Positions 11,675 through 44,591 are shown, counted from the first letter of the stretch. The stretch: DNA of 64,000 nucleotides from an uncultured Chloroflexia bacterium (GCA_963707215.1 CAVPPB010000003.1:480001-544000); one strand, 5' to 3'. Made by a program: numbers and translations. The notes: generated by a model from the letters alone, not told the origin.

Positions 11675-12627
11675 CCACCGACCCCCGACCGGCCGTGCTC
11701 CTCATGGCCTACGGCAGCCCCGATCGGCTCGACCAGGTCGAGGCGTACTACACCGACATCCGCCGCGGCAACCCGCCCCCACCCGAGCTGCTCGAGGAGC
11801 TCCTCGAGCGATACCGCGCGATCGGTGGCGGCTCGCCGCTCTCCGGGATCGTCGAGCGCCAGCGAGCCGCCCTCGAGGCCGAGCTCGCCCGACGCGGCAG
11901 CCCGGTCCCCGTCTACGCCGGCATGCGCCACATCGAGCCGCGGATCGGGGCGATGGTGGGCCGGATGGTCGACGACGGGATCGACGGGTTCGTGGCCATC
12001 GCCCTGGCACCTCAGCGCTCCTCGAACGCCGCCGGCTACCGCCGGGCTGTCGAGGGGCGACTCGCCGACGCGGAGGGCGGGCCGAGCTACCGGATCGTCG
12101 GATCGTGGCACGACGAGCCCTGCTTCATCGAGGCCCTCGCCGCGGCGACCCGGACGGCGCTCGAGCGGACCGCCGACCCGACGACGGCCCGGGTGATCTT
12201 CACCGCCCACAGCCTGCCGACCCGCGTCGTCGCGGAGGGAGACACCTATCCGCAGGAGCTGGCCCGAACGGCCGCCCTCGTGGCCGATCGGCTCCACCTC
12301 GACCGCTACGAGTTCGCTTTCCAGAGCGCCGGGAGGACCGGCGAGCCCTGGCTCGGTCCGGACCTCCGGGACGAGCTGCGGCGACTCGCCAAGGACGGCG
12401 TCTGCGAGGTCGTCGTCTGCCCGGTGGGTTTCGTGGCCGATCACCTCGAGGTGCTCTACGACATCGACATCGAGGCGCGCGCGGTCGCCGATGAGCTCGG
12501 CCTCCGCCTGGAGCGGGCGCCCTCGATGAACGACGACCCGACCTTCATCGCCGGCCTGGCCGACGTCGCCGAGCGGGCGCTCGGCGAGCTGCCGTCCGGC
12601 ACCACCACGGGCGCCGGGGTCGCCTGA
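11671..12627 (+). CDS. hemH: ferrochelatase (probably coproporphyrin ferrochelatase CpfC)
   Basis: LLMAYGSP, YAGMRH, FTAHSLP, FQSAGRTGEPWLGPD and GFVADHLEVLYDID. Confidence 0.93.
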   Translation: MTTDPRPAVLLMAYGSPDRLDQVEAYYTDIRRGNPPPPELLEELLERYRAIGGGSPLSGIVERQRAALEAELARRGSPVPVYAGMRHIEPRIGAMVGRMVDDGIDGFVAIALAPQRSSNAAGYRRAVEGRLADAEGGPSYRIVGSWHDEPCFIEALAAATRTALERTADPTTARVIFTAHSLPTRVVAEGDTYPQELARTAALVADRLHLDRYEFAFQSAGRTGEPWLGPDLRDELRRLAKDGVCEVVVCPVGFVADHLEVLYDIDIEARAVADELGLRLERAPSMNDDPTFIAGLADVAERALGELPSGTTTGAGVA

Positions 12628-12630
12628 GCC

Positions 12631-13839: not shown

Positions 13840-13861
13840 GCGGACCGGCCGGGACCCATCG

Positions 13862-20255: not shown

Positions 20256-21701
20256 TCAGGCCTCGGTGTTGATCATGACGTTCTTGACGAACGTGTAGTC
20301 CTCCAGAGCGTACATCGAGCCGTCCTTGCCCCAGCCCGACTCCTTGACGCCGCCGTGCGGGGTCTCGGAGGTCAGGGTGAAGTGCTCGTTGATCCAGACC
20401 GTGCCGAACTCGAGCGCCTTGGCGACCCGCATGGCCCGGCCGATGCTGCCGGTGAAGAGCGAGGAGGCCAGGCCGAACTTCACGTCGTTGGCCCACGCGA
20501 CGGCCTGCTCCTCGTCGGAGAAGCGCTGGACCGTGACGACCGGTCCGAAGACCTCGTCCTGGATGATCTCGGAGCCCTGGTCGGGACCGGCGATGAGCGT
20601 CGGCTCGTAGTACGCACCGACCCTGGCCGGTCGCTTGCCGCCCACGACGAGCTCGACGCCGGGGGCCTCGACGGCACGCCCGACCATGCCCTCGACCTTG
20701 TCGGCCTGGGCCCCGGCGATGAGCGAGCCCATGTCGAGCTCCTCGCTCTCGGCCGGGTCGCCCCACTTGATCGAGCGGACCTGATCGGCGAGCTTGTCGA
20801 CGAACGCGTCGTAGACCTTTGGGCCGGCGATGACGCGGCAGGCGGCCGTGCAGTCCTGGCCCGAGTTCCAGAACCCGGCCGACTTGATGGTCTCGGCCGC
20901 GAGGTCGAGGTCCGCGTCGTCGAAGATGATGACCGGCGCCTTGCCGCCGAGCTCCAGGTGGAGCCGCTTCACGGTGTCCGAGGCGAGGCGGGCCACGTGC
21001 TTGCCGGTCACGGTGTCGCCGGTGATCGAGATCATCCGGACCTTCGGGTGGGTGATCAGGAAGTCGCCCATCTCCGCGCCGGCGCCGGACAGGACGTTGA
21101 GGACGCCCGGCGGCAGGAACTCGGCCGCGATCTCGGCGAAGGCCAGGGCCGTCAGCGGGGTCCGGGCCGACGGCTTGAGGACCACCGTGTTCCCCGTCGC
21201 GAGGGCCGGCCCGAGCTTCCAGGCCGCCATGTACATCGGGTAGTTCCACGGGGCGATCGAGGCGACCACGCCGATCGGGTCGCGCCGGAACAGCGAGGTG
21301 TGGCCGGCCAGGTACTCCGTGACGGCCTTACCCTCCATCTGGCGGCAGGCCCCGGCGAAGAAGCGGAACAGGTCGACGCAGACCGCCATCTCGTCGATCG
21401 CGTAGGCGGTCACCTTGCCGGCGTTGCGGCTCTCGAGCTGGCCGAGCTCCTCGCCCTTCGCCTCGAGGGCGTCGGCGATCTTCAGGAGGGTCAGGCTGCG
21501 GTCCTGCGGAGTCGACTTGCCCCAGGTCTCGAAGGCCTTCGCAGCAGCCTCGACCGCCCGGTCGACATCCTCGGCGCCACTCTTGGGCACCCGGGCGATG
21601 ACCTGGTCCTGGGCCGGATTGACGACGTCGAGCGTCTCCCCGCTCGCGCTGGCGACGAACTCGCCGCCGATGAACTGCTTGTACTCGATGACGTCCGTCA
21701 C
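20256..21701 (-). CDS. gamma-aminobutyraldehyde (aminoaldehyde) dehydrogenase, PatD-like
   Basis: EYLAGHTSLFRRDPIGVVASIAPWNYP, LELGGKAP, NSGQDCTAACR, EVFGPV and ETPHGGVKESGWGKD. Confidence 0.85.
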   Translation of the reverse strand: MTDVIEYKQFIGGEFVASASGETLDVVNPAQDQVIARVPKSGAEDVDRAVEAAAKAFETWGKSTPQDRSLTLLKIADALEAKGEELGQLESRNAGKVTAYAIDEMAVCVDLFRFFAGACRQMEGKAVTEYLAGHTSLFRRDPIGVVASIAPWNYPMYMAAWKLGPALATGNTVVLKPSARTPLTALAFAEIAAEFLPPGVLNVLSGAGAEMGDFLITHPKVRMISITGDTVTGKHVARLASDTVKRLHLELGGKAPVIIFDDADLDLAAETIKSAGFWNSGQDCTAACRVIAGPKVYDAFVDKLADQVRSIKWGDPAESEELDMGSLIAGAQADKVEGMVGRAVEAPGVELVVGGKRPARVGAYYEPTLIAGPDQGSEIIQDEVFGPVVTVQRFSDEEQAVAWANDVKFGLASSLFTGSIGRAMRVAKALEFGTVWINEHFTLTSETPHGGVKESGWGKDGSMYALEDYTFVKNVMINTEA

Positions 21702-25989: not shown

Positions 25990-26085
25990 GCCTGCTCCCT
26001 ACGCCGGTACGAACCGGATCAGGTTGGCGGGTCTGTGGCGGGGCCACACTCTCAGCGCGTCGTCGCGCTCCCCGGAGGCGGTATT
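25990..26085 (-). ncRNA. TPP riboswitch
   Basis: Minus strand reads GGGGAGC..GCTGAGA..GACCC.CAACCTGATCCGGTTCGTACCGGCGTAGGGA, the canonical THI-box elements; boundaries approximate. Confidence 0.92.
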
Positions 26086-26101
26086 CGGTTGTCCTTCGAT
26101 T

Positions 26102-27020
26102 CTACACCGGCCCGGCGGAGGGTTCGACGAGCACAGTCTCCGCGCGTGATCCGTTGGCCAGGGGCACCGGGCGGCCGGAGACGGCCCGGCCGCCAGCCGG
26201 TCCCCCACCCAGGCGACCAGGTCGGCGACGATCTGCCGGCCCGTCCGGCTCGTTGAGGCTCTCGTGGCGCAGGCCCGGGAGCACCCGCCGGGTCACCCCA
26301 TCGAGCCGTCCCAGCGCTTCGGTCGAGGTGACCGGCACGACGGGGTCCGTCCGAGCCGTGGATGACCAGGGTCGGCATCGGCATCCGCTCCAGCGTCGCG
26401 AGCCGCTCGCTCACCCGTCGCTGGGCATCGAAGCCGATCCGGGCGAGGTGGACCGTCCCGGCCTGACGGATGAGCGGGTCGGCGGCGTCAGCGGCCGCCT
26501 GGGCCGGGTCGCACGAGACATCCTGCGGGCGGATCCCGGACGGCAGGCGCAGCCGCGGCAGCAGTGGATCGAGCCATGGCGCCGCCCGATGCTTCCAGGG
26601 AGCAAGGCTGTCCGCGAGGCTCGGGGCGGACAGGATCAGCAGATCGCTCGTCGGGCGTCCGCTGGTGGCCTGGTCGAGGGCGATGAGGCCGCCCATCGAA
26701 TGGCCCAGCATCACGACCGGGCGATCGCCCGCGGCGGCGCGCAGTCGCTCCAAGGCCTCGTCGACGTCGTCGAGGAGGCTCTCCCAGCGCTCGATGTGGC
26801 AGGGGGTCCCACCCGAAGCACCGAAACCGCGATGGTCCCAGCCGTGGACGTGGATCCCGGCGGCGGCGAGGATCGAGCCGGTTCGCTCGTAGCGGCCGCT
26901 GTGCTCGCCCAGCCCATGGACCAGCAGCATCCCGGCCCAGGGCGGCGCCGACGGCGCCCAGGCACGGGTCCGCAGGGTGATCCCGTCGCGGGAGGTGACC
27001 GAACCGATCTCCGATGGCAT
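26102..27020 (-). CDS. alpha/beta hydrolase (lysophospholipase/monoacylglycerol lipase type) with two apparent 3' frameshifts
   Basis: LVHGLGEHSGRY, DHRGFGAS, GHSMGG and LVIHGSD, then in another frame PVTSTE...LRHESLNEP; 3' end uncertain. Confidence 0.75.
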
Positions 27021-27076
27021 CCTTCGCCTCGCATGCCGGCCGCGCGGCCGTCGGCGGCATCGTAGCGGAGCGGACG

Positions 27077-27883
27077 ATGGTGGACTGGCTCGAGGTCGGC
27101 GACCGGGTCTTCGTCCGGCGCTACCGCTTCTACGACCAGGGGATCGGGGCGATCCTGTCCGAGGCCGGTGTCGCGATCGTCGACACCCGGACGACGCCGG
27201 CGCAGGCCCGCGAGGTCCTGGCCGACCTGCGGACGCTGACCGACCTGCCCGTCACGGTCGTCATCGACACCCACCACCACCACGACCACGCTTTCGGAAA
27301 CTCGGTCTTCCGGCCGGCGGTCATCTGGGGCCACGCTCGCTGCGCGACCCGCCTGATCGAGACGGCCGCGGCCCAGATCCGATCGGTGAGCGAGGAGATC
27401 CCCGGGCTGGCCGAGGAGCTCCGCGACATCGTCGTCGACCCGCCCGACCGGACCTTCGAAGAGACCGCCTACGTCGACCTCGGCGGGCGGCGGCTGGAGC
27501 TCCGCTACCTGGGCCGCGGGCACACTGACGACGACATCGTCGTGCTCGTCCCCGACGCCGGGGTGCTCTTCGCCGGTGACCTCCTCGAGAACGGGGCCCC
27601 GCCGTGGTTCGGGGACGGCTACCCGCTCGACTGGCCGGAGACCGCCAGCCGGCTGCTGGACCTGGTCCACGGGCCGGTCGTGCCGGGTCACGGCGACGTC
27701 GGCGACCGCTCGTTCGTCGAGGACCAGCTGGCAGCCTTCCTCGCGGTAGCCGAGGCGGGCCGACGCGTCCACCGGGGCGAGGTCGGCCTGGACGACGCGG
27801 TCGCCGCGGGACCGTTCGGGCCGGCGGCCTCTCGCGAGCCGATCGAGCGGGCGGTCGCCCAGCTGCGGGGCGAGCTCGACTGA
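27077..27883 (+). CDS. MBL-fold metallo-hydrolase
   Basis: THHHHDHAFGN, GRGHTDDD, LFAGDL and VVPGHG. Confidence 0.88.
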   Translation: MVDWLEVGDRVFVRRYRFYDQGIGAILSEAGVAIVDTRTTPAQAREVLADLRTLTDLPVTVVIDTHHHHDHAFGNSVFRPAVIWGHARCATRLIETAAAQIRSVSEEIPGLAEELRDIVVDPPDRTFEETAYVDLGGRRLELRYLGRGHTDDDIVVLVPDAGVLFAGDLLENGAPPWFGDGYPLDWPETASRLLDLVHGPVVPGHGDVGDRSFVEDQLAAFLAVAEAGRRVHRGEVGLDDAVAAGPFGPAASREPIERAVAQLRGELD

Positions 27884-27945
27884 GGGCGGGTCCCCGTGGA
27901 CCCGGTGGCGGCGCTCGTGGCCGGGGCGCTGCGGAGCGACCTGGA

Positions 27946-28950
27946 CTAGCCGCCGACCCGGACCACCCAGCGACCCCTGGCATCGCCGGCGACGATCGCA
28001 TCGAGCGCCGGTTCGACCGTGTCGAGGGACACCTCGGTCACATCCTGGCCCAGGGCCCGCGGGCGCAGATCGTCGCCCAGCCTCGCCCAGAGCGCGCGTC
28101 GCGTCTCGATCGGCATGGCTACCGAGTCCATCCCCAGGAGCCCGACGCCGCGGAGGATGAACGGCAGGACCGTCGTCGAGAAGGCAGCCCCGCCGGCGTT
28201 GCCGCAGGCCGCGACCGCGGCTCCGGGCGCCAGGGTCCGCAGGATGTACGGCATCGTCGGTGCGCCGACCGCGTCGATGGCCCCGGCCCAGCGCCCCGAC
28301 TCCAGCGGTCGGGCGCTCTCGGCGGTCACCTCCTCGCGGGTCAGGATGCCGGCAGCCCCCAGCTCGCGGAGCCGGTCGGCCTCGTCCGCCTTGCCGGTCG
28401 CCGCCCAGACCTCGTAGCCCAGCGGCGTCAGGATCGCGACCGCCGAGCGACCCACGCCACCGGCGGCGCCGGTCACGAGCACCGGACCCGCGGCCGGCGT
28501 CAGCCCACGTCCCTCGAGCGCGGCGACGCCCATCGCTGCCGTGAACCCGGCCGTGCCGATCGCCATGGCCTCGCGGGCCGAGAGGCCGTCCGGCAGCGGC
28601 ACGGCCCAGCCGGCCGGGATCCGCTGGTACTCGCCGTAGCCGCCGTGCCGCGACACGCCGAGCTCGTAGCCGTTGGCGAGGACCTCCGAGCCGACGGGGA
28701 AGGTCGGGTCGGCCGAGCCGACCACCTCGCCGGCCAGGTCGATCCCGGGGATGAGCGGGCTGATCCGGGCGACCTTGCCGTCGAAGCGGGTCGCCAGGCC
28801 GTCCTTGAAGTTGACCCCGGACCAGGCGACCCGGACCTCGACCTCGCCGTCGGGCAGGTCGGCCGGTGACAGCGTCCGGAGGCCCCGCTCGACCCGGTCC
28901 TCGAGGCGCTCGGCGACGTAGGCGCGGAAGGTCTCGGGGATGGCGCTCAT
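27946..28950 (-). CDS. acuI: acrylyl-CoA reductase AcuI/YhdH family MDR oxidoreductase
   Basis: [43 protein letters not shown] and [18 protein letters not shown]. Confidence 0.85.
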
Positions 28951-29378
28951 GGTCGCTCCTCCTGCGCGGCCAGGATCTCGGCCCGGCGCGAGTGCTCCTT
29001 CGGGATGACGGTCGTCCCGACCGCCCGGCAGGTGACGACGGGCTCGGCGAGGACGTCGGCGGCCGATGGTGACAGGTCATAGCGGCTGGCGATGACCTTG
29101 CGAGCCTCGAACTCGACCGTCCGGCTGGTGTTGCCGATGCGGACGATCCGGCCGGTCACCTCCAGGAAGTCGCCGGCGTGGACCGGCGCCAGGAACTCGA
29201 TCCGGTCGTAGCCGACGAAGAGGCCTTCGTCGCCGTCGGTGACGATCGCCAGCTCGGTGATGACGTCCCCGAAGAGCTCGAGGGTCCGGGCCCCGGCCAC
29301 CAGGTTCCCGCCGTAGTGGACGTCCTCCTGGCCCATCCGGACCCGCAATGTCGCGGTGATCGGCTCCTCGTTCGTCAT
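28947..29378 (-). CDS. kal: hotdog-fold beta-aminoacyl-CoA ammonia-lyase (Kal / beta-alanyl-CoA ammonia-lyase family)
   Basis: RVRM..ED.HYGGNLV.GAR.L.LFGDV.TEL....DGDEGLF..YD..EFLAPV.AGD...GNTSR...FEARKVI matches the Kal family as I recall it. Confidence 0.85.
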
Positions 29379-29463
29379 CGTCGTCCCTCCTGGCCGGTCC
29401 ATCCGGCTCGATCGTGCGCCGGCAGAGCCGGTCCCGGTGTCATCTTCGAGCGGGCCGCCGCGA

Positions 29464-31551
29464 TCACCCGCCGTCCCTCAGGATGACGAGCCCGTCGACG
29501 GCGATCGTCCGATCGCGGCCGACGAGGATCGGGTTGAGGTCGATGGCCGCGACGCGGGGATGATCGACGCCGAACGCGGCCAGACCGCAGATCGCGTCGA
29601 GCACGCCTTCCTCCGGGATCGCTCCCCCGCGGGCGGTCCGGAGCATCCGGCCGACGACCGTCTCGTCGAGCATCCGGCGAGCCTCGTCCCGGTCGATGCG
29701 GCCCACCCGCACGGCGACCTGGTCCAGGTACTCGGTCCAGATGCCGCCGAGGCCGACAAGGACGACCGGCCCGAACTGGGGGTCGCGCTGGAAGCCGGCG
29801 ATGAGCTCGACCTCGCCCTCGAGCATCTCGGCGACGAGCAGGCGACCCGGGTGCCCCAGGGCTGCGAGCCGCTCGAGGATGGAGGCGGCAGCGTCGCGGA
29901 CCCGATCGGCCGTCCCCAGGCCGACCCGCACCAGGCCCTGCTCGCTCTTGTGGGCGATCTCGGGGCCGACCGCCTTGACGACGACCGGGTAGCCGAGCGA
30001 CTCGGCCGCCCGGACGGCCGCCTCGACGTCCTCCACGATGACGCGCCGGGGCACCGGGATGCCGTACCGAGCGGCTGCCTGGAGGGACGCGTCCTCGTCG
30101 AGCTGCGAGGCACCTCGTCCGATGGCGTCGTCCAGCTCGGGGAGGGCGATCGGCGCCGCGTCCGGGGCCAGGCCCTCCCCCGGCCACTCGGTCCGTCCGG
30201 CGATCTTGGCGATGGCGTCGAGGCCCACCCAGGCGCCGCGAAGGAGCGGGATCCCCTCGGCGTGGCAGAAGGCCGAGAGCTCTGGCGCCGGATCCTGGCT
30301 CGACGGGCTCAGGTAGATGGGGGTCTTGCCGCTGCGTCGGGCGGCGGCGGCGAGGTAGGCGGCGAGGTCGCGGCCCAGCTGGAGCTCGAAGGAGCCGCAG
30401 GTGGTCTGCTGGTCGATCGACATGACCAGGACGTCGCCGTCCTCGGCCGCGGCGGTCTCCAGCGCCTCCGGGTAGATGACCTGGTAGTCGTCCGTCCCCC
30501 AGGGGTCCATCGGGTTGGCGACGTGGAACTGCGGCCAGCGCTCCCGGAGCCGGGCGATCCCGGCGTCGCTCATCGGCGGCAGCTCGATCCCGAGATCCTC
30601 GGCCAGGTCCGCCAGCAGATTCGCCTCGCCGCCGGAGTTGGTGACGACGTGGGCGCGCCGGCCGAGCCGGGTCCGACCGGCCCCCAGCAGCTCGCCGACG
30701 GTGGTCAGCTCGTCGAGGTCGGCGCAGAGGATGGCCCCGACCTGGCGGAGGGCAGAGGCGGCGACCCGGGCGCTGCCGGCGAGCTTGCCGCTGTGGGCGC
30801 GGATCCCCTCCTGGGCGATGGCCGAACGACCGACCTTGCACACGGCCAGCGTCTTGTCGGCCTCGGCGAGGACCCGGGCGGCGTCCAGGAAGCCGAGCGG
30901 GTCGCCGAAGCCCTCCACGAAGGCCAGCACCGCGTCGGTCTCGGGGTCCTCGGCGAAGAAACGGACGTAGTCGGCCAGGCCCGTCCCGGCCTCGGCGCCG
31001 CACGAGACGATCGTCGAGATCGGCACCCTGCCCCCGTTGTTGACGAACGCCTCCACGATGGCGCCGCTCTGGGCGACGATGCCGACCCGCCCGCGGCGCA
31101 CGTGCGGCGGCACGGTGCCGATGTACGGCGCCGCCCCTGTGACCAGGTCGACGAAGCCCATGCAGTTCGGTCCCACCACCGCGACGTCCCGCTCGACCGC
31201 CAGCCGGCGGAGACCGGCGGCCAGCTCCGTCGCCGCGTAGCCGGAGTCGGTGAAGCCCCCACCGGGGACGACGACGGCTCGTGCCCCCACGTCGACGGCC
31301 CGAGTGGCGGTCTCGAGGACGCGCTCGGTGGCCAGCTGGATGAGCACGACGTCCGGTGCCTCATCGAGGGCCTCGAGCGAAGCGACCGCAGCCACCGCAG
31401 CGACGTCGGCGTACTTCGGGTTGACCGGCAGCAGGCGTCCCGTGTAGCCGAGCCGGCGGCAGTTCTCGAGGGCGACCCGCCCGACGAACGTCCGGGGAGT
31501 CGCCCCGACGACCGCGACCGAGCGCGGGCGCAGGACGGGAGTCAGATCCAT
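29464..31551 (-). CDS. ADP-forming acyl-CoA synthetase (fused alpha-beta acetate--CoA ligase family)
   Basis: [44 protein letters not shown]-grasp GYPVVVKA...[14 protein letters not shown] and DLNPI. Confidence 0.88.
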
Positions 31552-31697
31552 CGCTCGGGCCTCCTGCTCGCCGTCGCGGTCGCCGATGGCGCTGCCGCGC
31601 CGGCCTGCCGCAACGGTACCGCCCCGCCAGCGACCGCGGCCTCCCGGTCGCGACGGGCGGTCGTGGTCGACGCTCGATCCATGGCTCGCCGGGTGGC

Positions 31698-31726
31698 TTG
31701 ACGACGACGGATGCGTCAGGCATCCT
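31698..31726 (+). promoter_or_regulatory. sigma70-type promoter for the met leader
   Basis: TTGACG (31698-31703), 17-nt spacer, CATCCT (31721-31726); the leader ATG follows at 31736. Confidence 0.6.
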
Positions 31727-31735
31727 CCGTCGACC

Positions 31736-33350
<1,615 letters not shown>

Positions 33351-36024: not shown

Positions 36025-36127
36025 GCCGATCGCACCCATCCGATGGCCGGGTCGGGCGCCGAGCCCGCCGGGCACCTCTTCGCAGGGCCGCATCCGGCCG
36101 CCGCTGGGGTATCATCCGGCTGGTCGC

Positions 36128-36202
36128 TGGCGCGTGGCTCAACGGTAGAGCACCTGACTCTGGATCAGGGGGTTCCAGGTTCGAATCCTGGCGCGCCAGC
36201 CA
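36128..36202 (+). tRNA. tRNA-Gln (CTG)
   Basis: Acceptor stem TGGCGCG/CGCGCCA, anticodon arm CCTGA-CTCTGGA-TCAGG, T-loop GGTTCGAATCC and an encoded CCA. Confidence 0.96.
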
Positions 36203-36276
36203 ACTCCTCCGGGGAGTGTGGTGCGTCCTCCCGTGAGCCGCGACTCCTCCCGCCCAGGTCGCAGGAGCCGCCCGCG

Positions 36277-37999
36277 ATGACCTACGAACCCACCGCCCCG
36301 TCCGCCGACCCGTCCCCCACCCCGGAACGGCGCGACTTCATCCGCGAGATCGTGGCCGCCGACGTCGCGGCCGGTCGGATCGCGGTGCCGGTCACCCGCT
36401 TCCCTCCCGAGCCGAACGGCTATCTCCACATCGGCCACGCCAAGTCGATCTGCCTGAACTTCGGCATCGCCCAGGAGTTCGAGGGGCGTTGCCACCTCCG
36501 CTTCGACGACACGAACCCGGTCAAGGAGGAGCAGGAGTACCTTGACGCCATCGAGGCGGACGTCCGCTGGCTGGGCTTCGACTGGGGCGAGCACCTCTAC
36601 CATGCCTCGGACTACTTCGAGCAGCTCTATGAGTGGGCGGTCCACCTGATCCGGACGGGTCACGCCTACGTGGACGACCTCTCGGCCGACGAGATCCGTC
36701 GGCACCGCGGCACGCTCACCGAGCCCGGCCGGGACAGTCCCTGGCGCGAGCCGGCAGGTCGAGGAGAGCCTCGACCTGCTCGAGCGGATGCGGTCCGGTG
36801 AGTTCCCCGACGGTGCCCGGGTCCTGCGCGCCCGGATCGACATGGCCTCGCCGAACATCAACCTCCGGGACCCCGTCCTCTACCGGATCGTCCACGCCAG
36901 CCATCCGCGGACCGGAGACGCCTGGTGCGTCTATCCGACCTACGACTTCGCCCACGGCCAGTCCGACGCCATCGAGGGCATCAGTCACTCGATCTGCACA
37001 CTCGAGTTCGAGGCCCACCGGCCCCTGTACGACTGGCTCATCGAGCACCTGCCGGTGCCGTCGCGGCCGCGGCAGTATGAGTTCGCCCGGCTCAACCTGA
37101 CCCACACGGTCCTCTCGAAGCGAGTCCTCAAGCGTCTCGTCGACGAGGGGCACGTCCGCGGCTGGGACGACCCGCGGATGCCGACGATCTCAGGCCTGCG
37201 CCGGCGGGGCTTCCCCCCGGAGGGCATCCGCGACTTCGCGGCGACGATCGGGGTGGCCAAGACGGACAGCGTGATCGAGGTCGGAGTCCTGGAGCATGCG
37301 GTCCGCGCCGTTCTCAACCGGACGGCCTCACGGCGGTTCGGCGTGCTCGACCCTCTCAAGGTCGTCATCGAGGACTACCCGGAGGGCCGGGTCGAGCACC
37401 TGGCGGTCCCCAACAACCCGGAGGACCCGACGGCAGGGGCCCGGGAGGTCGCGTTCTCCCGCGAGCTCTGGATCGAGCGCGAGGACTTCATGGAGGAGCC
37501 GCCGCCCAAGTTCTTCCGCCTGGCGCCAGGGCGCGAGGTACGCCTGCGGTCGGCCTACCTCGTCACCTGTCGCGAGGTCGTCAAGGACGAGTCCGGCAGG
37601 GTCGTGGAGCTGCGCTGCACCTACGACCCGGCTACCCGGGGCGGCGACGCTCCCGACGGCCGGCGCCCCAAGGCGACCCTGCACTGGCTGTCGGCGACCC
37701 ACGCGATCCCGGCCGAGGTCCGCCTCTACGGCTACCTGTTCCGCAACCCACTGCCCGGCGCCGACGGCCGCGACCTGTTCGACGATCTTGACCCGGCGTC
37801 GGAGACCGTGATCGAGGGCTGCCTCGTCGAGCCGAGCCTGGCCGAGGTGCCGATCGGCCAGACGGTCCAGCTCGAGCGGCTGGGCTACTTCACCCCCGAT
37901 CCCGATTCGACGCCCGAGCGTCTCGTGCTCGACCGGACGCTGACCCTCAGGGACACCTGGGCCAAGGTCCAGGCGAAGGGCCGCCCCGGGGGACGCTGA
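36277..37999 (+). CDS. glnS: glutamine--tRNA ligase (one apparent frameshift at ~36750)
   Basis: [23 protein letters not shown] and RFDDTNP, then in a second frame [21 protein letters not shown] and QLERLGYF. Confidence 0.92.
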
Positions 38000-38254
38000 G
38001 CGCCCGAACCTGACCGACCGTCAGGGTCCCAGGGGCCGAAGGTCCGGGCTGATCCTCGGCGCCAGTGGTTCCCCGCCCGAGGACCCAGCTCGGCAGCCCT
38101 CCGGCCCGACGAGGCCAGCGGCCCTATCCGACGGGGGCCGGTCGGGCCCCGGCCCCCGGGTCGTCCGGCCCTACATCCCCCCTGCCCGGCTGTGGTCAGG
38201 TGTACCTGCGTCCCCAGTCGACGCGCGACTCCGTGCGCGTCCCAACGGGTCGTC

Positions 38255-39031
38255 ATGAAGATCGCCATCTCGGGTAAGGGCGGGGCCGGCAAGACTACGA
38301 TCGCCGCACTCATCGCCGGGGAGCTCGTGCGGCGGGGCTATCGGGTCACCGCGATCGACGCGGACCCGAACCCGACGCTCGCCACCGGCCTGGGCTTCCC
38401 GCCCGAGCCGATCACCCCGCTGTTCGAGATGGCCGACGAGATCGAGGACCGCGTCGGCGGGGACGGGGTCATCCGGCTCAATCCACGGGTCGACGACCTG
38501 GTCGAGCGCATCGCGGTGACCCGCGAAGGTCTCGAGGGCCTCCAGCTGGTCGTCGCCGGCGGGGTCACCCGCGGCGGGGCCGGCTGCGCCTGCCCCCAGG
38601 GGATCCTCCTTCGTCGCCTCCTCGAGCACGTCGTACTGGGCCTGGAAGAGGCCGTGATCATCGACCTCGAGGCCGGCCTCGAGCACCTCGGACGGCGGAC
38701 CGCCCAGGCCGCCGACGCGCTGCTCATCGTCGTCGATCCCACGAACGCGGGGGTCGAGACGGCCGGCCGCATCCGACGATTGGCCGGCGACATCGGCATG
38801 GAGCGCATCGCGCTCATCGCCAACCGGGTCGTCGACCCGTCGGACCTTGCCTTCATCTCGGAGCGGCTGCCCGACCTCGAGGTGGTCGGCGCCATCCCCT
38901 ACAGCCAGGCCGTGCTCGCCGCCGAGCGAGCCGGCGCCCCACTCATCGGACTGGATGGAGCGGTCGGACCGGCGGTCGTCGACCTCGTCGACCACCTGGC
39001 CACCGGAACACGGGAAGAGGTGCGAACGTGA
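38255..39031 (+). CDS. cooC: CO dehydrogenase nickel-insertion ATPase
   Basis: MKIAISGKGGAGKTT, IDADP, GCACP and DLEAGLEHLGR. Confidence 0.92.
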   Translation: MKIAISGKGGAGKTTIAALIAGELVRRGYRVTAIDADPNPTLATGLGFPPEPITPLFEMADEIEDRVGGDGVIRLNPRVDDLVERIAVTREGLEGLQLVVAGGVTRGGAGCACPQGILLRRLLEHVVLGLEEAVIIDLEAGLEHLGRRTAQAADALLIVVDPTNAGVETAGRIRRLAGDIGMERIALIANRVVDPSDLAFISERLPDLEVVGAIPYSQAVLAAERAGAPLIGLDGAVGPAVVDLVDHLATGTREEVRT

Positions 39032-40989
39032 ACGAGCTCGAATCCCCGCCTTCGCGGACCGACCCAGCCAGCATCGCGATGCGCGAGCGGGCCAAGGCGG
39101 AGGGGGTCGAGACGATCTGGGACCGCTACGCCGCCCTGGGCACCCAGTGCAAGGTCGGCGAGCTGGGCATCTGCTGCACGGTCTGCCACCTGGGACCGTG
39201 CAATCTCGGCCTGCCGGGGAGCAAGCGGCCGCAGGTTGGCGTCTGCGGCGCGACCATCGACACGGTCGCCGCCCGTCGGCTGGCCCGCGACATGGCGGCC
39301 GGCTCGGCCGCCCACTCCGACCATGGTCGGTCGGTGGCCAACCTGCTCCTCAAGGCGGCCCGCGGCGAGGCGCCCGGCTACCGGATCGCCGACGCCGCGA
39401 AGCTCAACGCCCTGGCCGACGAGCTGGGCGTGGCCCGCGACGGAAGGCCGGTCGAGCAGGTCGCCGAGGAGGTCGCGGAGGCCTGCCTCGCGCAGTTCGG
39501 GCAGCAGGAGGGCGCCATCGCCTTCGTCGGCCGGGCGCCCGAGAAGCAGCGCCAGGACTGGGAGCAGCACGACATCACCCCGCGCGGCATCGACCGCGAG
39601 GTCGTCGACGTCATGCACCGCACCAACATGGGCGTCGACGCCGACTACAAGAGCCTGGTCCTGGGTGGCATGCGCAGCACCCTGGCCGACGGCTGGGGCG
39701 GGTCGATGGTCGCGACCGACCTCCAGGACGTCCTGTTCGGGACGCCGAAGCCGATCCGGGCCAAGGTGAACCTCGGGGTCCTCCGGGAGGACGCCGTCAA
39801 CATCCTCATCCACGGCCATGAGCCCGCCCTCGCGGAGGCGATCGTCGACGCGGCGACCGACCCCGAGATGCTCGAGGCCGCCAAGGCCCAGGGCGCCGCC
39901 GACATCAACGTCGCGGGCATCTGCTGCACGGCCAACGAGGTCCTGATGCGCCGGGGCGTGCCGGTGGCCGGGAACTTCCTCCAGCAGGAGCTGGCCATCG
40001 TCAGCGGGGCCGTCGAGGCGATGCTCATCGACGTCCAGTGCATCATGCCGGGCGTCGCCCAGGCAGCCGGCTGCTTCCACACGGAGGTCATCGCGACCTC
40101 CGAGCAGGCCCATTTCCCGGGGACCCGCCACGTCCCCTTCTCCGCCGAGACGGCCTACGAGAGCGCTCACGAGATCGTCAGTCGGGCGGTCGCCAACTTC
40201 GCCCGCCGGGACCGCGCTCGGGTCGCCATCCCGGACCACCAGATGGACGTGGTGGCCGGCTTCACGACCGAGTCGATCACCCGGATGCTGGGCGGGACGT
40301 ACCGCGGCGGCTACCGGCCCCTCAACGACGGGATCATGGCCGGGAGGATCCGCGGCGTCGCCGCGGTCGTCGGCTGCGACAGCCCCAAGCGCGCCCAGGA
40401 CGAGGGCCACCTCGACCTGGTCCTCGAGCTGATCAGCCGCGACGTCCTGGTGGCCCAGACGGGCTGCTCGGCCATCGCCTGTGGCAAGGCCGGGCTGCTC
40501 CGGCCCGAGGCGGCCCTCGAGCACGCTGGGCCCGGCCTCCGCGAGATCTGCGAGGCGGTCGGCATCCCGCCGGTCCTCCACGTCGGCTCGTGCGTCGACA
40601 ACAGCCGCCTCCTGACGGTCTGCATGGAGATGGTCAAGGAGGGCGGCGTGGGCCGCGACTTCAGCGAGCTGCCGGTCGCCGCCGCCGCCCCGGGCTGGTG
40701 GTCGGAGAAGGCCATCGCCATCGGCTTCTACGCCGTGGCCTCGGGACTCCTCACGGTCCTCGGCTCGCCGCTCAACATCCTCGGCAGCGAGGCCGTGACC
40801 CGCTTCGTCACCGAGGAGCTGGAGGACCTGGTCGGCGGGCGGTTCGCCTTCGAGCCGGACGCCGCCAAGGCCGCCGACCTGATCGCCGCGCATCTCGACC
40901 GCAAGCGGGAGGCGCTGAAGCTACGACCGATGCTCTACGAACCGGTGGCGGCCGCCGCCCCGGTCCTCGAGCCGGTCGCAACCGCCTGA
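39028..40989 (+). CDS. cooS: anaerobic Ni,Fe-CO dehydrogenase catalytic subunit (CooS/AcsA)
   Basis: D/B-cluster QC..G..GICC..C.LGPC...GVCG; C-cluster ligands HGHEP, ICCTANE, DVQC, VGC, TGC and GSCVDN; SEKA. Confidence 0.96.
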   Translation: MNELESPPSRTDPASIAMRERAKAEGVETIWDRYAALGTQCKVGELGICCTVCHLGPCNLGLPGSKRPQVGVCGATIDTVAARRLARDMAAGSAAHSDHGRSVANLLLKAARGEAPGYRIADAAKLNALADELGVARDGRPVEQVAEEVAEACLAQFGQQEGAIAFVGRAPEKQRQDWEQHDITPRGIDREVVDVMHRTNMGVDADYKSLVLGGMRSTLADGWGGSMVATDLQDVLFGTPKPIRAKVNLGVLREDAVNILIHGHEPALAEAIVDAATDPEMLEAAKAQGAADINVAGICCTANEVLMRRGVPVAGNFLQQELAIVSGAVEAMLIDVQCIMPGVAQAAGCFHTEVIATSEQAHFPGTRHVPFSAETAYESAHEIVSRAVANFARRDRARVAIPDHQMDVVAGFTTESITRMLGGTYRGGYRPLNDGIMAGRIRGVAAVVGCDSPKRAQDEGHLDLVLELISRDVLVAQTGCSAIACGKAGLLRPEAALEHAGPGLREICEAVGIPPVLHVGSCVDNSRLLTVCMEMVKEGGVGRDFSELPVAAAAPGWWSEKAIAIGFYAVASGLLTVLGSPLNILGSEAVTRFVTEELEDLVGGRFAFEPDAAKAADLIAAHLDRKREALKLRPMLYEPVAAAAPVLEPVATA

Positions 40990-41004
40990 CCGGAGGCAGA
41001 AGAC

Positions 41005-43191
41005 ATGTCCCGGATCATCGCCAGCGCCGCCATCCGAGGCGCCCACGAGTACGTCTCGGAGGCCGAGACCAAGCTGAACGCCATGGCGGAGTCCTCCGGC
41101 GGGGCGACCCGCCTGGAGTTCCCCAACACGGCCTTCTACCTGCCGCTGACCCTCGCCCTCACCGGGTTCGAGGTCAAGACCGTCGACGAGGCCCGCGTGC
41201 CGCTGCAGATCGCCCGCGACCTGCTGGGCCCGGTCCCCACCGACGAGACCTGGCTGCCGTACCTCGGTGACGCCCTCGACGCGGGGGTCGCGACCCTCAT
41301 CGCGGAGGAGATCATCGAGGCCCTCCGCTACGCCGAGGGGACCCAGTCCAACGGCATCTTCCTGGGCTTCACGGACGACGCCATCCTGCGGACCCAGGGC
41401 ATCAAGCTCGTCGACGGGCGGATGCCCGGCTTCGCCGCCTGCGTCGGCGCGCTGCCGACGAACGAGGAGGCGGTCCGCCTTGCCCGCGAGCTCCAGGAGC
41501 GCAACATCCTGGTCTTCATCTCCAGCTCCACCGACGGCCGGAGCATGGCCGAGCAGCTGGCCGAGGAAGGCATCGACATGAGCTGGGACACCTACCTGGT
41601 GCCCTACGGCAAGGAGACCAGCTCCACGGTCCACGCCCTGAACTTCGCCGCCCGCGCGGCGATGACCTTCGGCGGCCTGGTGCCGGGCGATCTCGACAAG
41701 GCCCGCCGGATCCTGCTCTACAACAAGGAGCGGGTCTTCGCCTTCGTCCTGGCCCTCGGCGAGGTCGACGACCGCAAGTACGCGACGGCGGCCGGGGCCA
41801 TCAACTTCGGCTTCCCGGTCGTCGCCGACACCGACATCCCGCAGATCCTGCCCAGCGGCATCTGCACCTACGAGCACGTCGTCAGCAACGTCCCCGGCGA
41901 GCGCATGGTCAACAAGGCCATCGAGGTCCGGGGGCTCAAGCTCAAGATCACCAAGATCCCGATCCCGGTCTCCTACAGCGCCGCCTTCGAGGGCGAGCGA
42001 GTCCGCAAGGAGCAGCTCCACGTCGAGTTCGGTCGCACCCTGACGCCGGCCTTCGAGTACCTCCGCTCGCGCGAGCTGGAGGAGATCGAGGACGGCCACA
42101 TCGAGGTGATCGGGCCGGACCTCGATACGGTCGAGGTCGGCGGGTCGATGCCGCTCGGCCTCCTCATCGAGGTCGCCGGACGCAAGCTCCAGAAGGACTT
42201 CGAGCCGATCCTCGAGCGCCAGGTCCACCGCTTCGTCAACGGCGCGATGGGCGTCATGCACATCGGCCAGCGCGACCTGCCCTGGATCCGGATGTCGAAG
42301 GAGACCTACGACGCCGGCTTCCGGCTCCGCGACTTCGGGGTCATCCTGCATGCCAAGTACCTGGAGGAGTTCCCGGCCATCGTCGACAAGGTCTCGGTGA
42401 AGATCTACTCCGACGCGGCCGAGATCGAGAAGATCCTCGAGGAGGCCCGGGGGGTCTGGGAGGAGCGCGACGCCCGGGTCGCCGGGATGACCGACGAGAC
42501 GGTCGACATCTTCTACTCCTGCACCCTCTGCCAGTCGTACGCCCCCAACCACGTCTGCGTGATCTCGCCGGAGCGGCTGGGGCTCTGCGGCGCCTACAAC
42601 TGGCTCGACGGCAAGGTCAGCCACGAGATCAACCCGAGCGGCCCGAACCAGCCGATCGAGAAGGGCGCCTGCCTGGACCAGAGCCTGGGCCTCTTCAAGG
42701 GCATCAACGACTTCGTCGCCGCCAAGTCGAACAAGACCGTCGACCAGGTCAGCCTGTACTCGATGATGACCGCGCCGATGACCTCGTGCGGCTGCTTCGA
42801 GTGCATCATGGGCGTCGCCCCCGAGGCGAACGGCGTCGTGGTCGTCAACCGCGAGTACCCCGACATGACCCCGCTGGGCATGTCCTTCAGCACCCTCGCC
42901 GGCCTCGTCGGCGGCGGCATCCAGACCCCGGGCTTCCTCGGCGTCGGACGGCTCTACCTGACGAGCCGCAAGTTCATCCCGGCCGACGGCGGCCTGCCGC
43001 GCCTGGTCTGGATGCCGAAGGAGCTCAAGGACGCCCTCCGCGAGAAGCTCACGGCCCGTGGCTCTGAGATCGGCGACCCGGACTTCGTCGACAAGATCGC
43101 GACCGAGGAGGACGCGACCACGACCGAGGAGCTGCTGGCCTTCCTGGAGCGCGTCGGTCACCCGGCCCCGACCATGCCGTCCATCCTCTGA
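41005..43191 (+). CDS. acsB: acetyl-CoA synthase (bacterial type with N-terminal domain)
   Basis: EFPNTAFYLP, A-cluster YSCTLCQSYAPNHVCVISPERLGLCG and PMTSCGCFE. Confidence 0.96.
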   Translation: MSRIIASAAIRGAHEYVSEAETKLNAMAESSGGATRLEFPNTAFYLPLTLALTGFEVKTVDEARVPLQIARDLLGPVPTDETWLPYLGDALDAGVATLIAEEIIEALRYAEGTQSNGIFLGFTDDAILRTQGIKLVDGRMPGFAACVGALPTNEEAVRLARELQERNILVFISSSTDGRSMAEQLAEEGIDMSWDTYLVPYGKETSSTVHALNFAARAAMTFGGLVPGDLDKARRILLYNKERVFAFVLALGEVDDRKYATAAGAINFGFPVVADTDIPQILPSGICTYEHVVSNVPGERMVNKAIEVRGLKLKITKIPIPVSYSAAFEGERVRKEQLHVEFGRTLTPAFEYLRSRELEEIEDGHIEVIGPDLDTVEVGGSMPLGLLIEVAGRKLQKDFEPILERQVHRFVNGAMGVMHIGQRDLPWIRMSKETYDAGFRLRDFGVILHAKYLEEFPAIVDKVSVKIYSDAAEIEKILEEARGVWEERDARVAGMTDETVDIFYSCTLCQSYAPNHVCVISPERLGLCGAYNWLDGKVSHEINPSGPNQPIEKGACLDQSLGLFKGINDFVAAKSNKTVDQVSLYSMMTAPMTSCGCFECIMGVAPEANGVVVVNREYPDMTPLGMSFSTLAGLVGGGIQTPGFLGVGRLYLTSRKFIPADGGLPRLVWMPKELKDALREKLTARGSEIGDPDFVDKIATEEDATTTEELLAFLERVGHPAPTMPSIL

Positions 43192-43222
43192 TCCGAGCCA
43201 TCCCTTCGAGAGGTCGATCGCC

Positions 43223-44581
43223 ATGCCGCTGACCGCCCTGGACATCTACAAGGTCCTTCCGCAGACCAACTGCGGTGAGTGCGGGGTGCCGACCTGCCTG
43301 GCCTTCGCCATGCAGCTGGCCACCAAGAAGGCGGCCATCGACGACTGCCCGTACGCCACCGACGAGGCCAAGGCCGCGCTGGCCGGTGCCGCCGCGCCCC
43401 CCATCCGCCTGGTCTCCGTGGGGCCCGCCGACCAGTGCGTGGTCATGGGCAAGGAGACGGTCCTCTTCCGCCACGAGGAGACCTTCTATCACCCGACGGC
43501 GATCGCCGTCCGCATCCGCACCGACAAGCCGGAGGCCGAGCTCCGGGCGGCCTTCGAGCGGGTGAAGGAGCTGGTCTTCGACCGGGTCGGCCAGTTCGTC
43601 AAGGTCGAGCTCGTCGCCCTGGAGGACCCGGACGACGACGCGGCCCGTTTCGCGGCGGCCGCGAAGCTGGCGAACGAGATGGAACTCGGCCTCGTCCTGG
43701 TGAGCCCGACCCCGGCCGTCATCGAGGCGGCCCTCCCGGCGCTGGCCGGCCGGCGACCGCTCATCGATGGCGCGACGGCCGGGAACTGGGAGGCGATGGC
43801 CGCCCTGGCCAAGGCCAACGACTGCCCGCTCGTGGTCCGGGGCACGGACCTCCAGGATCTCGCAGGACTGACCACCAGGATCGCCGGGCTGGGGCTCACC
43901 GACCTGATCGTCGACAGCGGCGCCCGAGGTCTGGCGGCCACCATCCGTGACCTGACCCAGATCCGGAGGCTGGCCCTGCGGCGCCAGGCCCGCCCGCTCG
44001 GCTACCCGGCCATGGCCGTCGTCACTGCGAGCGACCCGATCGACCAGGTCACCGAGGCGTCGGCCTTCATCGCCAAGTACGCCGCGATCGTCGTCGTCGA
44101 CGAGCTGGAGCCGTGGCAGGCCCTGGCCATGGTCACGGCCCGCCAGAACATCTACACCGACCCGCAGAAGCCGATCCAGGTCGACGCCGGTCTGACGACC
44201 ATCGGCAGCCCCGACGCCTCGTCGCCGGTGCTGGTCACGACGAACTTCTCGCTCACCTACTTCACCGTCGAGGCGGACACCGAGTCCAGCCACGTCCCCT
44301 CATGGGTCGTGGTCGTCGACACTGAGGGCCAATCGGTCATGACCGCCTGGGCCGCCGACAAGTTCAGCGCCGAGACGATCGCCAAGGCCCTGGAGGACTC
44401 CGGGGTGGTCGACAAGGTCGACCACCGGCGCTGCGTCATCCCAGGCGGTGTCGCCTCGCTCAGCGGCAAGCTGGAGGAGCTGAGTGGCTGGGAGGTCCTG
44501 GTGGGACCGCGCGAGTCGGCCGGTATCCCGGTCTTCATGCGGACCCGCTGGCGCCAGCCCGAGCCCGCTGCCGCGAGCTGA
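43223..44581 (+). CDS. acsC: corrinoid iron-sulfur protein large subunit
   Basis: LPQTNCGECGVPTCLAFA...CP, RQNIYTDPQKP, VTTNFSLTYF and VGPRES. Confidence 0.95.
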   Translation: MPLTALDIYKVLPQTNCGECGVPTCLAFAMQLATKKAAIDDCPYATDEAKAALAGAAAPPIRLVSVGPADQCVVMGKETVLFRHEETFYHPTAIAVRIRTDKPEAELRAAFERVKELVFDRVGQFVKVELVALEDPDDDAARFAAAAKLANEMELGLVLVSPTPAVIEAALPALAGRRPLIDGATAGNWEAMAALAKANDCPLVVRGTDLQDLAGLTTRIAGLGLTDLIVDSGARGLAATIRDLTQIRRLALRRQARPLGYPAMAVVTASDPIDQVTEASAFIAKYAAIVVVDELEPWQALAMVTARQNIYTDPQKPIQVDAGLTTIGSPDASSPVLVTTNFSLTYFTVEADTESSHVPSWVVVVDTEGQSVMTAWAADKFSAETIAKALEDSGVVDKVDHRRCVIPGGVASLSGKLEELSGWEVLVGPRESAGIPVFMRTRWRQPEPAAAS

Positions 44582-44591
44582 GGGACCTGTC

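Follow-up and report, generated by a model that had tools for sequence, protein, structure and literature searches.

Gene content and layout of the locus

We analysed a 64,000-nucleotide stretch of DNA from an uncultured Chloroflexia bacterium (GCA_963707215.1 CAVPPB010000003.1:480001-544000), hereafter the window, with a focus on three consecutive minus-strand genes at positions 27946 to 31551 that encode a putative acyl-CoA ligase, a Kal-family ammonia-lyase and an AcuI-type reductase. A first-pass annotation of the sequence had read these genes as an operon leading from beta-alanine via acrylyl-CoA to propionyl-CoA. The window has a GC content of 73%, and its nearest relatives are metagenome-assembled genomes (MAGs) labelled Candidatus Limnocylindrales, Chloroflexota. 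The open reading frames (ORFs) on the minus strand span 27946-28950 (334 aa), 28947-29402 (151 aa) and 29464-31764 (766 aa), and each has the GC distribution over codon positions that marks a real gene, with a third-position GC fraction (GC3) of 0.90-0.92. The features of the locus are the following:

29464..31551, minus strand: ADP-forming (NDP-forming) acyl-CoA synthetase (ACD), 695 aa, DddX-related, putative beta-amino-acid (beta-alanine)-CoA ligase (Pfam and Protein Data Bank (PDB) match)
28947..29402 (likely start ATG 29378), minus strand: Kal/Acl-family hot-dog beta-aminoacyl-CoA ammonia-lyase (NF052388, 4mtu)
27946..28950, minus strand: YhdH/AcuI-family NADPH enoyl-CoA (acrylyl-CoA) reductase (TIGR02823)
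31552..32012, no strand: divergent intergenic region, 461 nt, between the ligase gene and an O-acetylhomoserine sulfhydrylase gene (sequence read)

The proposal of three genes in one orientation with a 4-nt overlap between lyase and reductase is borne out by the ORFs, the family matches and the junction itself, where the reductase start sits on the lyase stop (ATGA) and GGAGGAG lies just upstream. The ligase start proposed in the first-pass annotation, at 31551 within the longer ORF, appears plausible, with AGGAGG 9 nt upstream and the first Pfam domain beginning at residue 81 of the longer ORF. For the lyase, ATG 29378 is more likely to be the start than 29402, because it is preceded by GGAGGG at 7 nt and gives a protein of 143 aa, in line with the 142-143 aa of close homologues among the best 120 of roughly 7,900 Kal homologues. 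The operon is flanked by a convergent metallo-beta-lactamase (MBL)-fold gene on one side and by the divergent O-acetylhomoserine sulfhydrylase gene on the other. The intergenic region upstream of the ligase presumably holds the operon promoter and operator; a promoter scan of 31552..32012 found no sigma-70-like site, and one terminator-like hairpin is located within the region at 31858-31874 on the plus strand. An Rfam scan of 27000-33000 gave zero matches at E values up to 0.1. The reductase is present as a single copy in the window's genome.

The three proteins and their closest relatives

The ligase has the CoA-binding, succinyl-CoA-ligase-like and ATP-grasp architecture of the NDP-forming acyl-CoA synthetase superfamily, with all Pfam domains above cut-off (CoA_binding_2, 55.9 bits; Succ_CoA_lig, 109.1 bits; ATP-grasp_5, 180.6 bits). 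Its best solved relative is DddX of Psychrobacter sp. D2 (7cm9; 286.8 bits, E 3.3e-84, full length), an ATP-dependent lyase of dimethylsulfoniopropionate (DMSP). DddX ligates DMSP to CoA via phospho-His292 and holds the sulfonium with Trp391 and Phe435, and its Glu432 is proposed to eliminate dimethyl sulfide, giving acryloyl-CoA, which is handled by AcuI (PMC8163506). In our alignment, where the chain index equals the residue numbering of that paper, His292, Trp391 and Glu432 are His, Trp and Glu in the window ACD, within the motifs AHSG, NPMDPWG and SFELQ, and Phe435 is replaced by Leu. The phosphohistidine of the swinging loop is kept in 20/20 aligned ACD rows, the His/Trp/Glu motifs are kept in all full-length ACD orthologues of loci L007-L023 (described below), and the actinomycete orthologues read GD[HY]E, near the GDHEF of DddX. 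The conserved Trp391 and Glu432 positions fit a three-carbon acid bearing a cationic beta-group, and the pair would suit beta-alanine because this is the ammonium analogue of DMSP. A functional DddX-like enzyme with 23% identity is described as being without both Trp391 and Glu432 (PMC13543886), and therefore these residues do not define DMSP cleavage. We class the window protein, from its sequence, as a member of the ACD superfamily that would work in the manner of DddX.

Besides ACD kinship, the phosphohistidine and the Trp/Glu pair, the two systems share an AcuI partner. They differ in that DddX carries out ligation and elimination in one protein, whereas the window has a separate ammonia-lyase and a Leu in place of Phe435. 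In addition, the DddX gene is accompanied by a BCCT transporter gene and dddB/dddC, whereas a scan of 21 ORFs at 15.6-46.5 kb showed no BCCT domain, and the neighbours of the window ACD are the lyase and the AcuI-type reductase. The next solved relatives are the 3-hydroxypropionate (3HP)-CoA ligase (9y43) and the 4-hydroxybutyrate (4HB)-CoA ligase (8wzu) of Nitrosopumilus, which belong to the same superfamily and likewise act in the ligase direction on small substituted acids, but which score lower (227 and 196 bits) and are without the Trp of the NP.DPWG motif. The 3HP-CoA ligase has Gly at the Trp391 position and gives no alignment over the following middle domain. The top NCBIfam match of the window ACD is ADP-forming 3-hydroxypropionate-CoA ligase, with 297.5 bits, far under the cut-off of 1300.

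The genome also contains a paralogue region (G000:C2:457936-460848, L165), in which an ACD gene lies between acyl-CoA dehydrogenase pieces and an enoyl-CoA hydratase gene. This region shows apparent frame breaks, a partial ATP-grasp domain and a split acyl-CoA dehydrogenase, and may represent either another module for acid activation or one in decay.

The lyase is a 4HBT hot-dog protein with a score of 175.5 bits to NF052388 (3-aminobutyryl-CoA ammonia-lyase; cut-off 160), or 175.6 bits in the genome-level search. It matches the solved beta-alanyl-CoA:ammonia lyase Acl2 of Clostridium (Anaerotignum) propionicum (4mtu) with 93.6 bits (E 1.2e-25), and homologue scores to Acl2 span 82.7-97.1 bits, with Acl2 roughly equidistant from all clades. 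The window lyase keeps every family-invariant residue, including H29, Y30, D56-L61, A76-D78, E81, S93 and R94, and by sequence it appears to be Kal-type, not Acl-type, because Acl2 differs at R22, E59, G60 and R94. The clade of ACD-linked lyases differs from lyases in a lysine context at G24, E26, I48, A52, V63, T95, V96, S106, Y108, T131, H137 and S138, a residue pattern that fits the same chemistry in an altered pocket. In common with the Kal of lysine fermentation, the window lyase scores over the NF052388 cut-off, and it is 50-68% identical to lyases encoded in kce-kdd-kamA-kamDE clusters, but it stands outside such a context in both the window and the genome and falls in a separate ACD-paired clade. 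It is thus a member of the Kal family by sequence, not by context. Kal genes in organisms that do not ferment lysine have been noted earlier and were explained as 3-aminobutyryl-CoA scavenging (PMC8397731), and beta-alanyl-CoA lyase activity has been measured for a Kal/Acl homologue from Stigmatella aurantiaca, an aerobe (PMC10266731).

The reductase scores 404 bits to TIGR02823 (YhdH/acrylyl-CoA reductase family; cut-off 297.25), and its PDB matches are 1xa0 (340 bits), AcuI 5gxf (274 bits) and YhdH 1o89 (271 bits). The AcuI family is described, in a secondary statement, as specific for acrylyl-CoA (PMC4029986). An alpha/beta-hydrolase gene (Hydrolase_4, 'serine aminopeptidase S33') is located at 26052-27020 on the minus strand of the window, one gene beyond the reductase's neighbour position, and in a related locus an alpha/beta-hydrolase gene (L009:8402-9265) overlaps the reductase end; the association is conserved only among close relatives. 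The hydrolase might be part of the module, for example by freeing the substrate from a conjugate.

The ligase and reductase matches would also suit a 3HP/acrylate scheme, in which the ACD forms 3-hydroxypropionyl-CoA, the hot-dog protein serves as a dehydratase and AcuI yields propionyl-CoA: the best NCBIfam match of the ACD is a 3HP-CoA ligase, albeit far under cut-off, and AcuI has been reported as part of the reductive 3-hydroxypropionate route in Rhodobacter sphaeroides (PMC4029986). This scheme is highly improbable, as the hot-dog protein is close to the lysine-cluster lyases and keeps all invariant residues, the 3HP-CoA ligase is without the Trp shared with DddX, and its alignment stops before the middle domain common to DddX and the window ACD.

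Co-occurrence of ligase and lyase genes outside lysine fermentation

Genes for lysine fermentation had been reported as missing from the window, and our searches agree: tblastn with Kce, Kdd, KamA, KamB, KamD and KamE references taken from related loci found none in the window. In the genome, which is 84.8% complete, there is no BKACE/Kce family member, tblastn finds no Kce, Kdd or KamD/E, and a KamD-like protein reaches only 83.6 bits, where the cut-off is 600. A lone lysine 2,3-aminomutase gene is located 1.1 Mb away (G000:C3:1604964-1606574; L005:8965-10575; TIGR03820, 549.9 bits, cut-off 525.4). It is an extended ORF of 536 aa beside genes for a C-terminal processing peptidase and an aldehyde dehydrogenase, with no other lysine-fermentation genes.

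A scan with one genome per species gave 59 loci encoding a lyase relative, at which neighbours were counted by tblastn with reference proteins. The ACD gene is directly upstream of the lyase gene in 17/18 loci whose lyase is at least 73% identical to that of the window (L007-L023; the exception is L024), and these ACD orthologues are 46-92% identical and occur in Chloroflexota and Actinomycetota (Sinomonas gamaensis and two Blastococcus species). An ACD gene was found in 0/39 loci with lyases of 50-68% identity, most of which sit in kce-kdd-kamA-kamB-kamDE clusters with CoA-transferase genes. Sampling of further genomes returned a lyase match in 12/401 Chloroflexota and in 50/401 genomes of the phylum of Sinomonas (a tally that includes five unpublished genomes), and added two ACD-linked loci with more distant ACDs, L120 and L164. 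The 44 contexts from the sample of the Sinomonas phylum comprise 21 of lysine type, 22 without a recognisable partner and 1 that is ACD-linked.

The ACD-linked set thus consists of 20 loci (L007-L023, the window, L120 and L164). An enoyl-CoA reductase gene, either AcuI or Ccr, is adjacent in 15 of them: AcuI in 13 (downstream in 8, divergent upstream in 5) and Ccr in 3 (L009, which also has AcuI, L017 and L120). Within the window's family, an ACD of at least 69% identity is found in 4/60 other genomes, and in 4/4 of these the lyase lies between ACD and AcuI; one further genome (G816) has an AcuI of 81% identity without an ACD orthologue and without the lyase. These partner counts mark the pair of ACD and lyase as the firm unit, to which an enoyl-CoA reductase is docked. 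The grouping of the genes is beyond chance, and the survey, with 17/18 close loci and 4/4 family genomes, did not refute the expectation that the three genes are conserved together. In four runs that carry the label estuary metagenome, short contigs about 94-97% alike together cover the cluster from end to end, some of them crossing from ligase to lyase and from lyase to reductase, so that the gene order is evidently preserved in close relatives. A search of sequencing runs for the stretch listed no RNA run.

In a tree built from 107 homologues of the lyase, L024 and 18 ACD-linked rows form one clade, with a support of 94 in the approximate likelihood-ratio test (SH-aLRT), and this clade is set apart from 50 lysine-context rows and nested in a larger group that is mostly outside a lysine context. 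The ACD label requires 4 changes on the tree, compared with a mean of 18.7 for shuffled labels, and 0/500 shuffles were as low. Left out of the tree were L036, L114, L124 and L140, whose matches were broken or short, L038, which duplicates L037, L064 and L065, which lacked a full match, and the five unpublished genomes. We claim only the ACD-linked grouping from it, because the alignment offers just 131 columns and leaves many forks open.

The same loci bear on the direction of the ACD reaction. ADP-forming ACDs conserve energy in the ATP-forming direction in many anaerobes and archaea, and the carbon monoxide dehydrogenase/acetyl-CoA synthase (CODH/ACS) set at 38-46.5 kb of the window suggests an anaerobic lifestyle. 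In such a case, the ACD would convert propionyl-CoA, ADP and Pi into propionate and ATP, and an unlinked CoA-transferase would make the beta-aminoacyl-CoA. We regard this arrangement as very unlikely. The nearest characterised relatives, DddX and the two Nitrosopumilus enzymes, are all ligases, a CoA-transferase gene is linked to the module in 0/20 loci, and a cation-binding Trp/Glu pair would be pointless for propionate. Moreover, the module is found in Sinomonas and Blastococcus, which are aerobes, and in Sinomonas it lies beside methylcitrate genes, which consume propionyl-CoA.

Other loci in the survey carry the lyase homologue in different surroundings. In several loci of Chloroflexota family f24 (L113-L119), it occurs with a TetR regulator, a medium-chain dehydrogenase/reductase (MDR) family dehydrogenase, a PALP enzyme and a xanthine/uracil permease, a third context that has neither ACD nor lysine-fermentation genes. 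In 20 genomes of the Actinomycetota sample (L143-L162), a lyase homologue of about 150-157 bits, just below the cut-off, lies in a conserved housekeeping neighbourhood with purL/purQ/purC/purF/purM-like genes and 2-oxoacid dehydrogenase E1/E2 genes, with no CoA-activating partner nearby. A link of L015 to reductive pyrimidine catabolism, raised by DHO_dh and Amidohydro_1 domains, was dropped after NCBIfam assigned these genes to SsnA, a Se-dependent xanthine dehydrogenase and a weak PreA-like match.

The predicted pathway and its substrate

Synteny, co-occurrence and phylogeny strongly support the earlier proposal of ligase activation, CoA-dependent deamination and NADPH-type reduction outside lysine fermentation. 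It is very likely, as far as sequence can tell, that the module deaminates a beta-amino acid via its CoA ester, and a scheme in which ligase, ammonia-lyase and reductase act in this order is probable. In the first step, the ACD would use ATP (via the phosphohistidine) and CoA to form a beta-aminoacyl-CoA, with the Trp (by a cation-pi interaction) and the Glu holding the beta-ammonium. The Kal/Acl hot-dog lyase would then, as expected from its family, remove ammonia to give a 2-enoyl-CoA, which would be acrylyl-CoA in the case of beta-alanine; a separate lyase would make chemical sense here, since dimethyl sulfide departs far more easily than ammonia. Finally, the translationally coupled AcuI-type reductase, again judged by its family, would use NADPH to convert the reactive enoyl-CoA to the saturated acyl-CoA (propionyl-CoA). 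Propionyl-CoA would enter the methylmalonyl-CoA pathway in the window's genome and the methylcitrate cycle in Sinomonas. As to the substrate, our preferred reading is that the operon serves the catabolism of a small beta-amino acid and that this is beta-alanine, to which we give a probability of roughly 0.5.

The context of the module supplies several points in favour of beta-alanine and a three-carbon route. In the Sinomonas locus (L020), PrpD and PrpC genes (the latter 633.8 bits to the 2-methylcitrate synthase model) lie downstream of the lyase gene, and a gene for a CoA-acylating methylmalonate-semialdehyde dehydrogenase (MMSDH) lies upstream. The window's genome has two methylmalonyl-CoA-mutase homologues and a carboxyltransferase and can, by its predicted gene set, take up propionyl-CoA. 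The carboxyltransferase match (G000:C1:239733-241194), near a methylmalonyl-CoA mutase gene, is in two pieces split at about 240910-240920, a possible frameshift. Neighbouring aldehyde dehydrogenases were sorted into subfamilies by pairwise identity and NCBIfam, which places one gene of the window as follows:

20256..21701, minus strand: aminobutyraldehyde/omega-aminoaldehyde dehydrogenase (NF010000)

This protein scores 678.4 bits against a cut-off of 615, and aminoaldehyde dehydrogenases matching NF010000 are encoded near the module in 6/20 loci. They adjoin it in L021-L023, the distance is 4 kb in L009 (74% identical) and 6.2 kb in the window, and L120 is the sixth locus. PucR-type regulator genes are found in 4 ACD-linked loci.

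Elsewhere in the genome, the region G000:C1:485737-494642 (L166) encodes a class-III aminotransferase, a cytosine/uracil-type permease, a CN-hydrolase fragment, a non-Pyl MttB-like methyltransferase and a dihydropyrimidinase/hydantoinase (560 bits, cut-off 393). Beta-alanine is likely an internal metabolite because the hydantoinase/dihydropyrimidinase gene stands beside the uracil-type permease and the CN-hydrolase fragment, and this region, judging from its gene content, probably both supplies beta-alanine and offers another sink for it. PanD was not found in the window's genome.

A number of observations weigh against beta-alanine as the substrate or against a dedicated three-gene pathway. 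The lyase exceeds the curated cut-off of an equivalog for 3-aminobutyryl-CoA ammonia-lyase, Acl2 departs at four residues (R22, E59, G60, R94) that are invariant in all alignment rows when read by eye, and bit scores to Acl2 barely split the clades (93.6 and 90.1 for ACD-linked lyases, 82.7 and 84.3 for lysine-context ones). The reductase falls under the cut-off of the AcuI equivalog NF051456 (326.7 versus 440 bits). AcuI homologues are found in 35/60 family genomes, mostly without the ACD-lyase pair, and therefore the presence of AcuI may reflect general acrylyl-CoA detoxification. A reductase gene is not adjacent in 5/20 ACD-linked loci, and Ccr, whose usual substrate is crotonyl-CoA, neighbours the module in 3 loci. 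The Trp of the ACD also occurs in the 42%-identical paralogue (C2:458572-460756) beside acyl-CoA dehydrogenase and enoyl-CoA hydratase genes, and is therefore not unique to lyase-linked ACDs. The operon itself contains no substrate transporter gene, and a transaminase route for beta-alanine may coexist because the genome has a class-III aminotransferase gene and an MMSDH-like gene. The aminoaldehyde dehydrogenase, which the first-pass annotation had suggested as a supplier of beta-alanine from 3-aminopropanal, does belong to the aminobutyraldehyde-dehydrogenase subfamily, but in the window glycosyltransferase, RDD, NMT1-like, alpha/beta-hydrolase and MBL genes separate it from the operon; such a supply is possible, with a loose linkage here. 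The first-pass reading is supported in part, and its intermediates, beta-alanine and acrylyl-CoA, are backed indirectly: DddX kinship, the AcuI family, the methylcitrate genes of Sinomonas and the recurring aminoaldehyde dehydrogenase speak for them, while the Kal type of the lyase and the Ccr neighbours do not.

Several of these points would be explained if the substrate had four carbons, such that 3-aminobutyrate is ligated to CoA and a true Kal forms crotonyl-CoA, which is then converted to butyryl-CoA or, by Ccr, to ethylmalonyl-CoA. The NF052388 score, the family-invariant residues absent in Acl2 and the sub-threshold AcuI score of the reductase are all in line with this possibility, as is a true Ccr by the L009, L017 and L120 modules (the L009 copy scores 491 bits to TIGR01751, cut-off 378.55). 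Free 3-aminobutyrate is, however, a rare metabolite. The nearest ACD relatives use three-carbon acids (DMSP and 3-hydroxypropionate), PrpD, PrpC and MMSDH flank the Sinomonas module, and the recurring aminoaldehyde dehydrogenases would give beta-alanine or gamma-aminobutyrate, not 3-aminobutyrate. The described specificity of the AcuI family also argues against a four-carbon route (PMC4029986), and Ccr itself accepts acrylyl-CoA at 40% of the crotonyl-CoA rate (PMC10266731). On balance, we consider 3-aminobutyrate an unlikely substrate.

The kinship with DddX raises a further question, namely whether the ACD could ligate, and perhaps cleave, a beta-onium compound such as DMSP, beta-alanine betaine or an N-methylated beta-alanine, giving acryloyl-CoA for AcuI, with the hot-dog protein assisting amine or sulfide elimination. 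DddX stands nearest among solved relatives, with His292, Trp391 and Glu432 kept, contigs covering the cluster come from estuary metagenomes, and genes for dimethylglycine-oxidase-like N-demethylases lie directly downstream of the lyase gene in L014 (three copies) and L017, the latter also with a PurU-like gene and a BetI-type TetR gene. Yet, as described, neither DddX nor the DddX-like enzyme of 23% identity requires an additional lyase (PMC8163506, PMC13543886), whereas the lyase strictly co-occurs with the ACD in these loci and keeps all residues of enzymes acting on primary amines. Phe435 is replaced by Leu, no BCCT/betaine transporter is encoded among the genes scanned at 15.6-46.5 kb, and carriers of the module include cultured Sinomonas gamaensis and Blastococcus, which are actinomycetes of soil or rock. 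A beta-onium substrate is therefore quite unlikely in our view. In L014, the stretch 7497-14401 holds the three dimethylglycine-oxidase-like genes (DAO + FAO_M + GCV_T), and in L017, 7619-13110 holds dimethylglycine-oxidase-like fragments together with genes for the PurU-like formyltransferase and the BetI-type TetR; these genes hint at a link to N-methylated amino-acid (betaine) catabolism.

Returning to beta-alanine, we put forward a more specific and more tentative proposal, which we hold at somewhat under even odds: the ACD may be the first natural ADP-forming beta-alanine-CoA ligase, from the same ACD branch as DddX, and the module would be a 'split DddX' with a recruited hot-dog lyase and with AcuI clearing toxic acrylyl-CoA, a new transaminase-independent beta-alanine route that is patchy in Chloroflexota and Actinomycetota. 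Such a route would probably be fed by polyamine or pyrimidine breakdown, and in some lineages N-demethylases may extend the module upstream to beta-alanine betaine degradation.

The closest parallel in terms of intermediates is the beta-alanine fermentation of C. propionicum, for which the same beta-alanyl-CoA, acrylyl-CoA and propionyl-CoA are proposed here and which employs the lyases Acl1/Acl2, Acl2 being homologous to the window lyase. The acryloyl-CoA reductase of C. propionicum is linked to an electron-transfer flavoprotein (ETF), whereas a single-subunit NADPH-dependent MDR reductase would serve here instead of the ETF-linked complex. The window lyase belongs to the Kal branch, unlike Acl2 with its differences at R22, E59, G60 and R94. 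C. propionicum activates beta-alanine with the CoA-transferase Act (PMC10266731), in place of which an ATP-dependent ADP-forming ligase would act here. The beta-valine pathway of Pseudomonas sp. SBV1 follows the same logic, with the CoA ligase BvaA, which has weak activity on 3-aminobutyrate and beta-alanine (PMC4619459), followed by the CoA-dependent lyases BvaB1/BvaB2. Its proteins are, however, unrelated to those of the window, as BvaA is AMP-forming and phenylacetate-CoA-ligase-like and BvaB1/2 are of the crotonase family, and the route is without a reductase, its product joining leucine catabolism. In the literature covered, from which subscription journals are mostly absent, we came across no account that pairs an ADP-forming ligase with a lyase of the Kal type.

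If our reading is correct, the module would represent a self-contained, ATP-driven version of the CoA-dependent beta-alanine deamination that biochemical work has established for the fermenter C. propionicum, present in Chloroflexota MAGs and cultured Actinomycetota, and it would explain thousands of genes annotated as 'Kal' in organisms unable to ferment lysine. It would also be of practical interest. In the screen reported for the HOPAC CO2-fixation cycle, none of ten synthetases ligated beta-alanine to CoA (PMC10266731), and acrylate-production work of 2026, as described in two reports, still relies on the single C. propionicum transferase (PMC13067684, PMC13042692). With a beta-alanine-CoA ligase, a CoA donor would no longer be required, and such a ligase is the kind of enzyme sought by pathway engineers. 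Furthermore, the DddX kinship points to a way in which a ligase for cationic propionates diversified, towards sulfonium substrates on one side and ammonium substrates on the other.

Two other features of the window were recorded. A complete-looking CODH/ACS set at 38192-46508 on the plus strand comprises genes for a CooC-like ATPase, a Prismane-family CODH, ACS (CdhC/ACS_CODH_B_C), the CFeSP subunit CdhD and a RACo activator, that is, Wood-Ljungdahl machinery in a Limnocylindria-like genome of 73% GC. Upstream of this set, a class-I Glu/Gln-tRNA synthetase is encoded in two overlapping plus-strand ORFs (36043-36801 and 36788-37999) that cover positions 3-116 and 134-313 of the catalytic profile, and this split is a frameshift or an assembly error.

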